Shown: positions 1 to 8,647 of the stretch, one piece after another
How the letters are laid out: each line of letters starts with the position of its first letter
How positions within the stretch are numbered: the first letter of the stretch is position 1
Virus record (IMG/VR): IMGVR_UViG_3300018026_000007
Coordinates: 1 to 64,000 of that record
DNA: 64,000 bases
Source: a virus
Direction: 5' to 3' (one strand)
Program-made: the position numbers and the translations under genes
The notes under the pieces: model-generated
Told to the model about the DNA's origin: nothing
What the model saw: the letters and a program-made list of their open reading frames with translations, nothing else
The model's database searches: none

Positions 1-260
1 GGTCGGACCCGCGAAGGTTGGACCAGTGAAGATTGGACCCGCGAAGGTCGGACCCGCGAAGGTCGGACTCGCGAAGGTCGGACCCGCGAAGGTCAGACCT
101 GCTAAGGTCGGACCCGCGAAGGTTGGACCAGTGAAGGTCGGACTCGCTAAGGGCGGACCCGCGAAGGTTGGACTCGCTAAGGTCGGACCCGCGAAGGTTG
201 GACCCGCGAAGGTCGGACTCGCTAAGGTCGGACCCGCGAAGGTTGGACCAGTGAAGGTTG
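1..260. repeat. 15-bp tandem repeat encoding the pentapeptide units
   Basis: Repeated ggtcggacccgcgaa and variants. Confidence 0.95.
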
Positions 261-367
261 ATGTTTTTTCTTTGTGCGTCAGCAACTGCAGCTTTCATGG
301 AGCCGCCATCATACTCAAACAAAACTGCTCCAAAAACGGATTTGATTTGTATCTTTGTTTTTGCCAT
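1..367 (-). CDS. Pentapeptide-repeat protein (3' end runs off the window)
   Basis: Minus-strand translation MAKTKIQIKSVFGAVLFEYDGGSMKAAVADAQRKNINLHWSNLRGSDLSESDLRGSNLRG...; [S/A][D/N]Lxx repeats; AAGGTG RBS upstream. The + strand AKVGP ORF is its antisense shadow. Confidence 0.9.
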   Translation of the reverse strand, partial: MAKTKIQIKSVFGAVLFEYDGGSMKAAVADAQRKNINLHWSNLRGSDLSESDLRGSNLRGSDLSESNLRGSALSESDLHWSNLRGSDLSRSDLRGSDLRESDLRGSDLRGSNLHWSNLRGSD

Positions 368-1047: not shown

Positions 1048-1135
1048 ATTCTCTCAAATCAGCGAAAACAATGCAATAGTACTTTAGTACCGAAAGTTCT
1101 TGACAGCGATTCAAGACTTTGTTATCCTAAGTGAG
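1048..1135. promoter_or_regulatory. Divergent promoter pair with central GTAC-TTTA-GTAC operator (1079-1090)
   Basis: Plus: TTGACA 1100-1105, 17 nt, TG-n-TATCCT 1123-1128, overlapped by the GACTTT motif at 1115. Minus: TTGCAT..GAGAAT. Confidence 0.8.
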
Positions 1136-1505
1136 TCGCGTTTAAGCGCGGCATGGTGGAGGCGGGGCTAAGGCCCCAGCCCTTTACGCACGTCAATACT
1201 TGGTGATTGCTCAGATGGACGGGAGTTCAACTCTCCCCGAGTCCACCAAAGTGCAGATATCTCCCTGCCGATAGTGGGGAGGGGCCCGTGTATCTGCACT
1301 TTGTTGGGCTCGACGGGTTTCGACATTTGAGAACAGTGGCCAGGGGCTCGTGCCGTCCTGACAACGACGTAAAAATAGATCAAACCATAAACGCCAAGCG
1401 AAAGCTGGCTCAAGTGATTGCGTTTCCAGGTGTCTTTGCGGTGGCTTCGGCCCGACCGCAAGCCCTAGCGGCGTAGTTGCGGGGAGGGGCCCCAAAAGGG
1501 GCCCT
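1135..1505 (+). ncRNA. ssrA: Circularly permuted (two-piece) tmRNA
   Basis: T-arm GGGAG-TTCAACT-CTCCC (1221-1237) and CGAGTCC-A-CCA (1238-1248) come before the 5' acceptor strand GGGCTCG (1306-1312) and GGTTTCGAC; G3:U70 wobble; P2 ATTTGAG/CTCAGAT; tag frame 1393-1476 AKRKLAQVIAFPGVFAVASARPQALAA*. Confidence 0.92.
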
Positions 1506-1525: not shown

Positions 1526-1756
1526 ATGACCAGCCATAGGTTTGAAGGATTCACACCGATAGACAGCGGACACCTGGACGGCGCAAAGTACGACCCAATC
1601 GGAAAGAAGCTCACCGTCCGCTTCAAGAACGGGTATACCTACGATGTGCATGGAGTCTCGGCGCAGGACCATCAGGACTTCATGGAAGCACCCAGCCAAG
1701 GCGAGCACTTCCACCAGGTCATCAAGAACAACTACCGCGTCGAACGAGTGAAGTAG
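1526..1756 (+). CDS. KTSC domain protein
   Basis: S..L....YD.....L.VRFKNG.TY....V.......FM.A.S.G..F pattern; AGGAG RBS. Confidence 0.85.
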   Translation: MTSHRFEGFTPIDSGHLDGAKYDPIGKKLTVRFKNGYTYDVHGVSAQDHQDFMEAPSQGEHFHQVIKNNYRVERVK

Positions 1757-2001: not shown

Positions 2002-3042
2002 CTAGTGTTGTTCCAGACTTTGAATGATTTCGTCCAACTCTTGCTTTCCGTCATTCGTAAGATAATACCGATGGCGGTTGCGGAATTCCTTCAGTCGTTC
2101 GATGAGTGGTTGGCTGTTGGGGATAAACCAATGCTTGACGTGCCGAAGCATTGCCTTGACTTTTTCAGGCACCAGAACCCACTTCATGCCCGCCGCCGAC
2201 GCACGTTGAATCTCTTCCTGAGTTGAGACGGGAACCGCCCCAAAGCCGTGGCGGCTCACGAAGTAGTTAAAATGAGCATCAGCGAAACCAGGAGTGGCGT
2301 TAACATGAGATTCAACATACTCAACATCGGGGGCTTCGGACTCCAGCAATTCCGATAAGCGTGCAGAGTGACCAGCGGCGGTCCAGAGCTTGGATGTTTC
2401 CCAGGCCAGGTCAAATCCATCCACCATGCCTCGGTCGCGGTCAAGTTTGATGACATCGGGGCGAAAAGAATAGCCGCATTTGAAACCCTTCACAGTCGTG
2501 ACGTAGAGCCCGCCGGCATAGATGCGACCCGCTTCGCCTTCTTCCTCAAGAATGGTGTTGTCTTCGTCGGGATGGGGGCGAATGTTGGACAGGATAAAGT
2601 CGTGGTCTTCGGGGCGAACCCCCGAAATACGGAAGAACGCGCCCTCGACGGTTTCGGCATCCGCTTCGAAAGAGTCGGTATAGATGTTGAGCACGGTCGC
2701 ATTGAAATTCGAATCGTGCTCTAACACGGGAGCCCAGCATTCTCTACCTGTGCGAATGACGACATCGTGCTTCAGGCGCGTCAGAACCAACAGCGCGAGT
2801 TTATAGCCCTCGCCGAACTTGCCGCGCTGATTCTTATTGTCGCGCTTCGATGTCGTGCCTAGAACCAAAGTGCTAGGGTCGAGCGGTCGTCCTTTGGATG
2901 AGAGGATGAGTGACTGTTCGTTTTCGTAGTAAGCGATAACGGCGTCACCCGCGTCGAGCGCGTTCTGGTAAATCTCGCGGACGGCTTCCCAGAGTCCCCA
3001 GTGCTCGCAGTAGCTCGGTGACAGCGGCAGAGTGAATTTCAT
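2002..3042 (-). CDS. GHKL (HATPase/Hsp90-like) ATP-binding protein
   Basis: N-box EAVREIYQNALDA and G-box GKFGEGYKLALLVL. Confidence 0.75.
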   Translation of the reverse strand: MKFTLPLSPSYCEHWGLWEAVREIYQNALDAGDAVIAYYENEQSLILSSKGRPLDPSTLVLGTTSKRDNKNQRGKFGEGYKLALLVLTRLKHDVVIRTGRECWAPVLEHDSNFNATVLNIYTDSFEADAETVEGAFFRISGVRPEDHDFILSNIRPHPDEDNTILEEEGEAGRIYAGGLYVTTVKGFKCGYSFRPDVIKLDRDRGMVDGFDLAWETSKLWTAAGHSARLSELLESEAPDVEYVESHVNATPGFADAHFNYFVSRHGFGAVPVSTQEEIQRASAAGMKWVLVPEKVKAMLRHVKHWFIPNSQPLIERLKEFRNRHRYYLTNDGKQELDEIIQSLEQH

Positions 3043-3049
3043 ATGGCTC

Positions 3050-3595
3050 CTATGCTAATTGCAGACTATCCATGGCTTCTTGCGCCAGCATACCATCGTT
3101 CTCTTGCAGGTAAACGAAAGCGGACGAGGGCGAGCGGTGCGCCAGGAACTGAGAAACCGCGCCGATGCGCTTCGTCACATCGAAGACGACCATCGCCGCA
3201 CTGTGTCGGAAGACATGCGAGTGAGCATAGCTGCTGTGAATGCCAGCGGCTTCGGCATATTCCTTGAGCTTCAGGTTAAAGTACTGACGCGACAGACCGC
3301 CGAAGATACGGGACTGGCCTTTCGTGGCAGCCAGGGCAACCAGGGGCGTCATGTCGAACGCTGGGTCCGCATCGATATGCAGCGAGTGAGTGACGACGTT
3401 CCCACGCTTCGCGGCGCGAATCATGATGACCCACTTGCCCTCACGCTCGAAGATATCCTCACCGCGTACGTTCAGCACCTGAGAGATTCGCGCACCAGTA
3501 AAAAAGCCGAGCAGCATGGCGAGATGATGAATCTTGTTCGCGGCATGCGCCGTTCGGAAGAGCTTGGCTAGGTCCTGCTTCGCTAGGTATTGCAT
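3050..3595 (-). CDS. Tyrosine recombinase, catalytic domain only
   Basis: TGARISQ (R), AKRG (K), HVFRH (HxxR), LAH and C-terminal Y; only 181 aa. Confidence 0.85.
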   Translation of the reverse strand: MQYLAKQDLAKLFRTAHAANKIHHLAMLLGFFTGARISQVLNVRGEDIFEREGKWVIMIRAAKRGNVVTHSLHIDADPAFDMTPLVALAATKGQSRIFGGLSRQYFNLKLKEYAEAAGIHSSYAHSHVFRHSAAMVVFDVTKRIGAVSQFLAHRSPSSAFVYLQENDGMLAQEAMDSLQLA

Positions 3596-7122: not shown

Positions 7123-7260
7123 CCTCCCCGCCCCTCGAAGACTCGGGACGGGGATTCCTACTGCTCTCAAGTGCACGATTGCACAAGAGTAGCTTCGGTG
7201 GGTTCCTGACACGACGCCCTTACCTCAGGCGAAGATGACGAGCAGGCTAAAAAGGCTAAT
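7096..7260 (-). ncRNA. Predicted TnpB omegaRNA/reRNA with flanking guide CCATCACCCTGGTCAATTGC
   Basis: Established TnpB biology: scaffold overlaps the tnpB 3' end and right end, and the guide is flanking DNA; 5' boundary approximate. Confidence 0.6.
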
Positions 7261-8412
7261 CCAGCCTCTTTGATGTTGAATGCGCCAACAAAGTCCGCAT
7301 TACCAGACCAGCCGCACTTGACACAAACAAACTTCGCTTGCGTCTTGCGGTTATCCTTGGACGTATGCTTGCACTCGGGACACTTGCGGCTGGTGTTTTG
7401 TGGTGGTACGGCAATTAAGATTCCACCGTTCCACAACATCTTGTATTCCAGTTGACGCCGCAATTCGAAGGGGCTTGCGTCCAGGATTGAGCGGTTGAGC
7501 CCTGATTTCTGGGCAACCTTCTTTCCCGGCTTGTCCTTCGTGCCCTTGCTTGACTTGGACATATTGCTAACTTGCAGGTCTTCGACGAAAACAACGGCGT
7601 GGTTTTTGCTGATGTCTGCCGAGACCTTATGAACGAAATCTTTTCTAATGTTGGCAATCTTGCTGTGCAGTTTGGTGATGCGGGCTTTCGCCTTCTTCCA
7701 GTTTTGGCTAAACTTTTTCTTCTTTGCCAGACGGCGCTGTAGCTTTGCCAACTTTGGCAAGAACTGTTTGAGCGGCTGGCATTGGTCTACGACTAGACCG
7801 TCCGATGCTGTTATGAAGTTGACGACTCCCCAATCCAAGCCGATAGACGACTTGGACGGGTGTTCTGGTACCTTGATTTCTTGTAGTGTGCTGACGCTGA
7901 CGAACCACTTTCCGCAGGACTCGCTAACAGTGGCGTTGCGAATCTGTCCGAGTACATCACGACTGTTGCGATAGCGCACCCAGCCAATCTTCGGCAAACG
8001 AATGCGGCTGTTGACTTGGTCTAGCGTGATGCACTTTGGGTCTGACTCACGATACGAAGTACGCTGTCCCTTCTTGTGGAACTTCGGGAAGTCCGCACGT
8101 TTCTTGAAAAAGTTTTGGTATGCCCTGTCCATATCTACCAAGGATTGCTGCAAGGCGTGCGACGGTGTATCTGAAAGCCAAGGCGTCTCTGACTTCCACA
8201 ATGTAAGCAACTTGTCGAGTTGAAACCGCGTATGCGAACGCTTCGTCAGGTCGTACATTTCCTTCTGGAGTGCCAACGCTTTGTTGTAGATATAGCGCAC
8301 ACTTCCAGCGAAGCGGCGCATCAGCCGCTGCTGTTCGCCGTTAGGCATCAACTCGAATTTGAATGCTTGACGCTTTTCCATTCTTGTATTATACTCTGGT
8401 CTATGGCTAATG
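7116..8412 (-). mobile_element. Non-autonomous IS200/IS605-family element (tnpB only)
   Basis: Right-end hairpin ATCCCCGTCCC...GGGGCGGGGAGGATG ending in TCAA; no tnpA; left junction approximate. Confidence 0.85.
7167..8381 (-). CDS. tnpB: RNA-guided endonuclease TnpB
   Basis: AFKFELMP HTH, RuvC-I GLDWG, RuvC-II VEDL, CPEC/CVKC zinc finger, RuvC-III NAD; TTGACA-17-TATAAT promoter at 8416-8388. Confidence 0.95.
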   Translation of the reverse strand: MEKRQAFKFELMPNGEQQRLMRRFAGSVRYIYNKALALQKEMYDLTKRSHTRFQLDKLLTLWKSETPWLSDTPSHALQQSLVDMDRAYQNFFKKRADFPKFHKKGQRTSYRESDPKCITLDQVNSRIRLPKIGWVRYRNSRDVLGQIRNATVSESCGKWFVSVSTLQEIKVPEHPSKSSIGLDWGVVNFITASDGLVVDQCQPLKQFLPKLAKLQRRLAKKKKFSQNWKKAKARITKLHSKIANIRKDFVHKVSADISKNHAVVFVEDLQVSNMSKSSKGTKDKPGKKVAQKSGLNRSILDASPFELRRQLEYKMLWNGGILIAVPPQNTSRKCPECKHTSKDNRKTQAKFVCVKCGWSGNADFVGAFNIKEAGLAFLACSSSSPEVRASCQEPTEATLVQSCT

Positions 8413-8437
8413 TCAAACTTGTGTTCGTAGATCGACA

Positions 8438-8647
8438 TTATCGTCCCGCCTTGACGCGGACAGTGTTGGACTCGCTGGCGATTCCTGGTGTGCCGTGCGG
8501 GCCGCCCATGTTCAGAACCCAGCCATGGGGTCCGCGCATCACCGCGCGCCCAGTCTTCGCTTTCCATTCCTGCCCATTGCGTCCGATGCCATTGGGAACC
8601 AGGATGGTCACTTTGTCGCCGTGCTTGATGGATTCGACTAAGGTCAT
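8438..8647 (-). CDS. Hypothetical protein
   Basis: Preceded by the conserved GGAGGCAACGCAAATG cassette. Confidence 0.7.
   Translation of the reverse strand: MTLVESIKHGDKVTILVPNGIGRNGQEWKAKTGRAVMRGPHGWVLNMGGPHGTPGIASESNTVRVKAGR

Follow-up and report, generated by a model that had tools for sequence, protein, structure and literature searches.

What kind of gene is it when the 3' end of a tmRNA lies upstream of its 5' end on a viral contig, and whose gene is it? The question is raised by a locus near the start of a 74.9-kb IMG/VR record, which is linear and about 75% complete and whose first 64 kb (referred to as the window) form the whole stretch of DNA analyzed here. We conclude that it is a functional phage two-piece tmRNA gene, to which we give a probability of roughly 85%, and that this gene is a divergent new branch of the known phage two-piece tmRNAs, not a new kind.

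Architecture of the gene

ARAGORN and the Rfam model tmRNA_permuted (RF04321) both call a circularly permuted tmRNA on the plus strand, at about positions 1135–1509. ARAGORN, a check proposed by an earlier, sequence-only reading of this DNA, places the permuted tmRNA at 1156–1567 with a 27-codon tag ending in ALAA; RF04321 matches the gene over model positions 1–213 with 71.1 bits (E = 1e-11), above the gathering threshold of 47 bits. The coordinates given by the sequence-only reading, its 7-bp acceptor stem with a G3:U70 pair and its stem-closed intervening segment of 57 nt all hold, and ARAGORN returned the same 27-residue tag, ending in ALAA after ATAAAC-GCC, that this reading had described.

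The acceptor piece starts with a 5' leader (1135–1187) whose sequence is weakly kept among relatives and which folds at −29.1 kcal/mol, with two predicted hairpins at about 1135–1152 and 1161–1181; from the position of the promoter, transcription would start near 1135. The core of the piece (1188–1248), all helices of which are 100% paired in the four known members with compensatory changes, comprises (i) one strand of the connector helix P2 (1188–1192, 1201–1204, 1211–1213 and 1215–1217); (ii) the T-arm (1221–1237); (iii) the 3' strand of the acceptor stem (1238–1244), followed by the discriminator A1245 and an encoded CCA (1246–1248), so that the end reads CGAGTCC-A-CCA. The 7-bp acceptor stem pairs this strand with GGGCTCG (1306–1312), G1308:U1242 being the G3:U70 pair. 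Between the two pieces lies the presumably excised intervening segment (1249–1305, 57 nt), a hairpin whose 12-bp closing helix (1248–1259 with 1291–1302) stacks on the acceptor stem and takes the A of CCA into its first pair; U1305 occupies position −1 of the presumed RNase P site.

The 5' part of the coding piece (1306–1392) contains the 5' strand of the acceptor stem (1306–1312, with G3 being G1308), a D-loop analogue, GGGTTTCGAC (1315–1324), the partner strands of P2 (1324–1353) and a hairpin at the position of PK1 (1354–1369), which is 87.5% paired in the four members; a candidate second PK1 stem, UGA with UCA, is invariant across them, which lends it no comparative support. A conserved single-stranded resume context, ATCAAACCATAAAC, which reads CATAAAC-GCC, precedes the tag reading frame (1393–1476). 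The latter opens with the resume codon GCC, runs for 27 codons to ALAA and stops at TAG (1474–1476); its 3' half includes a conserved, helix-5-like hairpin (1438–1459). The gene closes with an intrinsic terminator (1483–1514), made of an 11-bp GC-rich stem (1483–1508) and a T-run, which is also the 3' terminal hairpin of the coding piece and has its counterpart in the hairpin that ends the beta_tmRNA model. The tag frame is part of an 89-codon ORF (1207–1476), which we do not regard as protein-coding: among relatives, the part that is open ahead of the tag spans 27 to 62 codons and begins after different stops.

Promoter and operator-like boxes

A promoter and a terminator of its own had been assigned to the gene beforehand, and scans found both. 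The promoter (1093–1128, plus strand) is of the sigma-70 type, with 10 of 12 matches in the consensus scan: TTGACA-17-TATCCT at 1100–1128, with a TG-extended −10 element (TATCCT, 1123–1128) and a 17-nt spacer. The −35 element belongs to an extended 13-nt block, AAAGTTCTTGACA (1093–1105), three exact copies of which are present in the window (1093, 4572 and 56544) versus 0.09 expected; the full record has further copies at 67529 and about 69464. A palindromic box of putative operator function, GCAATAGTAC-nnnn-GTAC, immediately precedes the −35 element (1070–1090, plus strand) and recurs at 850, 8692, 9966, 56556 and 60237. Copies of this box adjoin or overlap TTCTTGACA −35 elements. The boxes look like the operator set of a phage repressor or activator controlling early genes, the tmRNA gene included.

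A four-member family with a conserved structure

The proposal to search viral metagenomes for homologs was taken up with pattern scans that covered IMG/VR, JGI metagenomes and 185,579 species, each represented by one genome. They yielded four distinct permuted family members: the window gene (also on metagenome contig L115), L003 (identical to L006 and L116), L004 (identical to L008 and L117) and L009. The contigs that carry them are all viral or metagenomic; no bacterial genome in these scans had a member. The three relatives score 81.1, 63.4 and 57.1 bits on RF04321, for a threshold of 47 bits. A family-specific 50-nt pattern had no match in the 185,579 species genomes, the exact 32-mer spanning the T-arm and acceptor had none in IMG/VR, and a sensitive blastn search of the gene against 50,697 GenBank phage records returned none either. 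A resume-region pattern gave six matches in the species genomes, which we set aside as chance: no tRNA-like domain lies near them, and neither Rfam nor ARAGORN calls a gene there.

In all four members, every pair of the acceptor, T and P2 helices can form (100%) and G3:U70 is invariant; 14 pairs of these helices are doubly compensated, 5 of them in the acceptor and T stems. Over the whole annotated structure, 21 pairs show double compensatory changes and 89.6% of positions pair, versus 29–47% when the partners are slid by 1–3 columns, and none of 500 shuffles reaches the observed value. The structure thus exceeds chance; with four sequences and a structure that was derived from a single one, these covariation statistics give an indication, not a final measure. 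The intervening segments range from 57 to 90 nt, and in each member the closing helix is built from unrelated sequence and directly prolongs the acceptor stem. The U at −1 is present in all four members; CCA is fully encoded in two, and the other two have ACC-C.

The gene belongs to the phage

The record encodes a terminase, a portal, a DNA polymerase, a helicase, GroEL and RecA. The tmRNA gene lies 1.1 kb from the contig end, an integrase-family ORF (3050–3595, minus strand) is found 1.5 kb from it, and tmRNA genes are classic integration sites (PMC11915505), all of which would fit the host's own ssrA at the edge (att site) of an integrated prophage, swept into a 'viral' contig. The surroundings of the gene in related phages speak against this. 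The neighbor protein (2002–3042) retrieves related phage contigs of 97 kb and 77–78 kb (L003 and L004), in which a permuted tmRNA gene has the same position, tens of kb away from either end, and in which the proteins on both sides of it are conserved at 44–86% identity. Moreover, L115, which is the same phage (99.8% identity over 4.5 kb), runs about 2.1 kb further left, into a pentapeptide-repeat gene and then further phage-like or ORFan genes. Three more observations oppose a host origin: (i) the promoter has motifs found across the phage, one of them in the left flank at 850; (ii) the record has no second copy of any tmRNA fragment; (iii) the 50-nt family pattern is absent from the species genomes scanned, and the candidate hosts examined carry only one-piece tmRNAs. 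An origin as a host ssrA gene at a prophage edge is so improbable that we consider it effectively refuted. Because its flanks are syntenic, because L115 extends the left flank and because its promoter motifs are common across the phage, the tmRNA gene is phage-borne, and the phage-encoded, circularly permuted two-piece tmRNA of the sequence-only reading is borne out by ARAGORN, RF04321 and these flanks.

The very start of the record (window positions 1–367, minus strand; L115:1647–2495) is a tandem array with a 15-nt period that encodes the pentapeptide-repeat protein (Pfam PF00805, 198 bits, with PHROG matches), and this repeat probably broke the assembly there. On the other side, the gene of a KTSC-domain protein (1526–1756, plus strand), syntenic in all relatives at 63–68% identity, starts 17 nt past the tmRNA terminator and is downstream of the tmRNA in all four phages.

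The integrase-family ORF also bears on a second possibility, namely that the main use of the tmRNA-like sequence is to provide attP-type homology through which the phage integrates into a host tmRNA gene, as phages that integrate into ssrA carry ssrA fragments (PMC9004378). The encoded protein has 181 residues and consists of a tyrosine-recombinase catalytic domain only (PF00589 positions 2–170 of 172); it is not a fragment, since its full length is kept at 58–86% identity in all relatives. Besides this catalytic-domain-only recombinase, the possibility is countered by the gene itself, which is complete instead of being a 3' fragment, is permuted when host genes are not, and is about 49% identical to Acidobacteriota tmRNAs in comparable segments; no integrated copies were found next to bacterial tmRNA genes in the 185,579 species genomes. 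We therefore consider an attP role very improbable.

No match to SmpB (PF01668) was detected on the 74.9-kb record or in the relatives that are 97–98% complete, so that the absence of smpB first remarked for the window extends to the whole record. Supply of SmpB by the host is usual for phage tmRNAs and is no bar to tmRNA membership.

The probable host and its tmRNAs

The RecA of the phage (51706–52722), which had been described as Acidobacteriota-like, is indeed closest to that phylum: it is 70–75% identical to RecA of Terriglobia, Acidoferrales and other Acidobacteriota, versus about 63–67% for other phyla. An IS-type transposase (7167–8567, minus strand; PHROG 506, 372 bits) is 74–77% identical to multi-copy elements of soil Acidobacteriota MAGs, and DNA of the phage was found in many metagenomes of peat and wetland; no RNA run was among the sequencing runs listed as containing the sequence. 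RecA similarity, IS element and habitat point to Acidobacteriota as the likely host. Inserted in the phage as it is, the transposase is a useful host marker. A search for TerL relatives in bacterial genomes found none, leaving no integrated relative for host assignment.

The soil Acidobacteriota MAGs that carry the IS element have one-piece tmRNAs (164–181 bits on RF00023) and no permuted tmRNA. In a set of 151 Acidobacteriota genomes, RF04321 gave five matches above cut-off (49.6–58 bits; loci L054–L058, in genomes G126, G102, G090, G063 and G080, respectively), none of which is a permuted tmRNA. At L054, L056 and L057, a tRNA-Asp gene lies 11–12 nt upstream of an ordinary one-piece tmRNA gene; at L055, only tRNAs are called; L058 holds only a standard tmRNA. 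The unpublished genome G029 enters only the 151-genome tally, and its match is weak (30.7 bits). The tags read at these loci have 8–10 residues, e.g. ANNNLALAA. Such RF04321 false positives, which arise when a tRNA gene lies right beside a standard tmRNA gene, matter for annotation pipelines. The phylum table of the 2025 tmRNA database lists five 'Permuted (beta)' entries in Acidobacteriota (PMC11915505), and the artefact might bear on the few 'permuted' entries of non-proteobacterial phyla.

Relationship to the known two-piece tmRNAs

The sequence-only reading had only one-piece tmRNAs known in phages, which is wrong. Buchholz et al. (2022, PMC9004378) counted 53 two-piece tmRNAs, for the most part in aquatic phages, among 402 isolate phage genomes that carry a tmRNA, and described one in the OM43 phage Melnitz; pelagimyophages have them as well (PMC9004378). 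The 2025 tmRNA database, which introduced RF04321, holds 79 phage sequences and 11,946 permuted ones (PMC11915505). In addition, one pattern scan returned 30 further IMG/VR contigs with a permuted junction on which ARAGORN calls permuted tmRNAs. A sample of these viral genes, which included genes with tags of 26–30 residues, proved of solid beta type (93–171 bits on beta_tmRNA), bacterial beta-type genes scoring 169–296 bits. Like the Melnitz and pelagimyophage genes and those of IMG/VR contigs L074–L107, the present gene is a complete permuted ssrA inside a phage, with an early-type promoter and no integration role. It also shares a long tag with several of the IMG/VR genes (L077, L081, L090, L097, L102 and L104, with 26–30 residues). 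Those phages, Melnitz and the pelagimyophages included, are, however, marine or freshwater phages with a GC content of 0.3–0.45, versus peat and 0.54 here. Their tmRNAs score as bona fide alpha or beta (93–171 bits) and group with a host lineage, whereas the peat family falls below every lineage cut-off and forms its own clade. Unlike the comparison phage group, the peat family has no riboswitch, and its probable host phylum has one-piece tmRNAs only in the genomes examined.

The Infernal check against the lineage models gave a divided answer. The match to the permuted model RF04321, given above, is clear, but none of the three lineages takes up the gene: alpha_tmRNA (RF01849, gathering threshold 50 bits) gave no match at E ≤ 10, cyano_tmRNA (RF01851, 70 bits) gave 26.4 bits over the tRNA-like domain only, and beta_tmRNA (RF01850, 84 bits) aligned end to end, from 1140–1509 to model positions 1–331, at 51.5–52.5 bits, which is below threshold. 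Relatives scored 70.7 and 37.1 bits on the beta model, and one relative fell below the reporting level of E = 1e-5. The lineage-specific Rfam models therefore miss the peat branch.

The betaproteobacterial two-piece tmRNA, reportedly described by Sharkady and Williams in 2004 (via PMC3985003 and PMC11915505), is a close match in layout. Both RNAs have (i) a leader of about 50 nt followed by P2, the T-arm, CCA and a short stem-closed intervening segment, in collinear order; (ii) the acceptor strand, P2, the PK1-position hairpin and CAUAAA-GCC, with the tag directly after it and then a terminal GC hairpin ending in UCA. They differ in sequence, with 48–50% identity in comparable segments and a position of the phage family outside the beta-type clade (support 99/90), in the tag (27 codons versus about 10) and in the 3' strand of P2, which is UUACGCNCGUAGAA here, as in standard tmRNAs, and UGGUUGUAA in the beta type. 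The likeness of this P2 motif to that of standard tmRNAs argues only against membership of the crown beta type. With Acidobacteriota one-piece tmRNAs (RF00023), the gene shares G3:U70, a similar P2 motif (UACGC..GUAGAA) and a tag ending in ALAA; the host genes are, however, unpermuted, with a full pseudoknot region (340–380 nt), tags of 8–10 residues and about 49% identity to the phage gene, and the phage family does not nest among them. As in the alpha two-piece tmRNA of the Caulobacter type (RF01849; Keiler et al. 2000, via PMC3985003), a permuted gene would give rise to an acceptor piece and a coding piece. Two-piece coding pieces typically have PK1 and PK2 (PMC3985003), whereas here the tag is followed by the terminator hairpin only.

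To place the family, we built a maximum-likelihood tree from the segments that do not depend on the permutation (from the 5' strand of the acceptor stem up to the resume codon, and from the 3' strand of P2 up to CCA) of 50 tmRNAs, over 163 columns. In these segments, the family is 43–50% identical to every reference group. The family forms its own clade (100/97), and a single node links it to the permuted clade (99/90) and the standard clade (86/89), so that this short, unrooted tree with rough support values is a three-way star, in which the family is nested neither in the beta type nor in Acidobacteriota. Being unrooted and short, the tree neither shows nor excludes an independent permutation. 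Its deep branches are unreliable, since the alpha-type L106 is nested inside the viral beta-type group. L106 scores 57.7 bits on the alpha model (cut-off 50 bits), yet pairs with L105 (100/93) in that group; it is either a borderline or mosaic form or misplaced by the short alignment.

The sequence-only reading had suggested an independent permutation event. The family lies beyond the cut-offs of all three lineages and beyond both the beta-type and the standard clades, yet on an unrooted three-way star an independent permutation is no more than possible. In its strongest form, the four-member phage-only family would be a fourth, independently permuted two-piece lineage, which arose in, or is maintained solely by, Acidobacteriota phages and whose long tag is tuned to phage needs. 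That the family fails the three lineage models, lies outside the beta-type clade and has a standard-like P2 motif speaks for a fourth lineage; the end-to-end collinearity with the beta model and the unrooted tree speak against it, and we hold it to be a tentative proposal with clearly less than an even chance of being right. The placement of the gene as a divergent branch of the known phage two-piece tmRNAs broadens the range of these RNAs, which had been that of aquatic phages of Proteobacteria and Cyanobacteria, to phages of peat soil whose hosts are probably Acidobacteriota. The interest of the branch lies in its mismatch with the tmRNA form of the probable host, in its position outside the three curated lineages and in its conserved long tag.

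Proposed mechanism

The following course of events is proposed from the anatomy of the gene and from precedent, the Caulobacter two-piece tmRNA being functional and its precursor presumably being a substrate of RNase P and tRNase Z (PMC3985003). Transcription from the phage-type sigma-70 promoter, with its phage-shared −35 block and operator-like box, would yield a precursor of about 375 nt, in which the acceptor stem would continue into the closing helix of the intervening segment. Host tRNA-processing enzymes would then free the two pieces, RNase P probably cutting between the conserved U at −1 and G1306, and the acceptor piece being trimmed at its 3' end, and its CCA repaired if incomplete, to end at CCA1248. 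The two products, of about 114 nt (acceptor piece) and about 200 nt (coding piece), would stay paired through the acceptor stem (7 bp) and the P2 helices (15 bp). Charging by host AlaRS is expected to occur through G3:U70. As the phage encodes no SmpB, we propose that host SmpB would deliver the charged RNA to stalled ribosomes; with no SmpB in the phage or its near-complete relatives, function would depend on the host protein accepting a divergent tRNA-like domain. Translation would resume at GCC 1393 and add a tag of 28 residues (the charged Ala plus 27 encoded residues) ending in ALAA, a putative protease-targeting end that is also found on the tags of the candidate hosts. The likely benefit to the phage is extra ribosome-rescue capacity during infection.

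The contrast between the phage form (permuted, 28-residue tag) and the host form (one-piece, 9–11 residues including the charged Ala) provides a clean test system. It opens two questions, namely whether a phage tmRNA works with the SmpB and AlaRS of a foreign host and what the conserved long tag adds.

Selection on the tag frame

The tag frame is 24–27 codons long across the four members. In 9 of 28 codon columns the residue is kept with different codons, and the variation affects position 3 in 25 columns, versus 16 for position 1 and 14 for position 2. Such wobble-dominated variation shows that the frame is under selection. The tags share the pattern xK-x-(K/T)-(L/M)-A-(Q/K)-V-(I/V/L)-x-F ... 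R ... A-(L/M)-A-A.

Selection on the frame weighs against a different role for the RNA, that of a decoy competing with host tmRNA for SmpB, AlaRS or ribosomes. There is precedent for an inhibitory phage RNA of this kind: mycobacteriophage DS6A has a tmRNA-like RNA that lacks a CDS and is reported to inhibit host trans-translation (PMC11915505). Moreover, the phage brings no SmpB, and its tRNA-like domain is divergent, as would suit a decoy. A pure decoy would, however, have no need of a full resume context, of a tag of conserved length with an A(L/M)AA end or of wobble variation, and the DS6A form has no CDS at all; we thus deem a decoy improbable.

If the gene makes a working tmRNA, its long, partly basic tag may do more than mark proteins for ClpXP-type degradation, for instance through recognition by a phage or host adaptor or by redirecting products. 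The N-terminal tag motif is kept at the residue level with synonymous codon changes, and the tag is wholly unlike the AN(N/D)xLALAA of candidate hosts, both of which would fit such an extra role. Against it, the C-terminal A(L/M)AA degron is kept, the conserved 5' part of the frame overlaps the RNA-constrained resume region, no adaptor gene was identified, and long tags are common in other phage two-piece tmRNAs. An additional role of the tag is unlikely in our view, if somewhat less so than a decoy, and the earlier suggestion that the tag reroutes stalled products is unsupported speculation, given the canonical A(L/M)AA end that it has in common with the tags of candidate hosts.

Tags of 26–30 residues were read on nine of the aquatic, low-GC viral contigs (L077, L081, L089, L090, L092, L094, L097, L102 and L104); it appears that phage two-piece tmRNAs repeatedly have long tags. 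Three of these contigs (L077, L089 and L097) were scored against Rfam and are bona fide beta type. One group of long tags among the aquatic viral contigs starts with A(K/N)(A/T)STGEVTVS.
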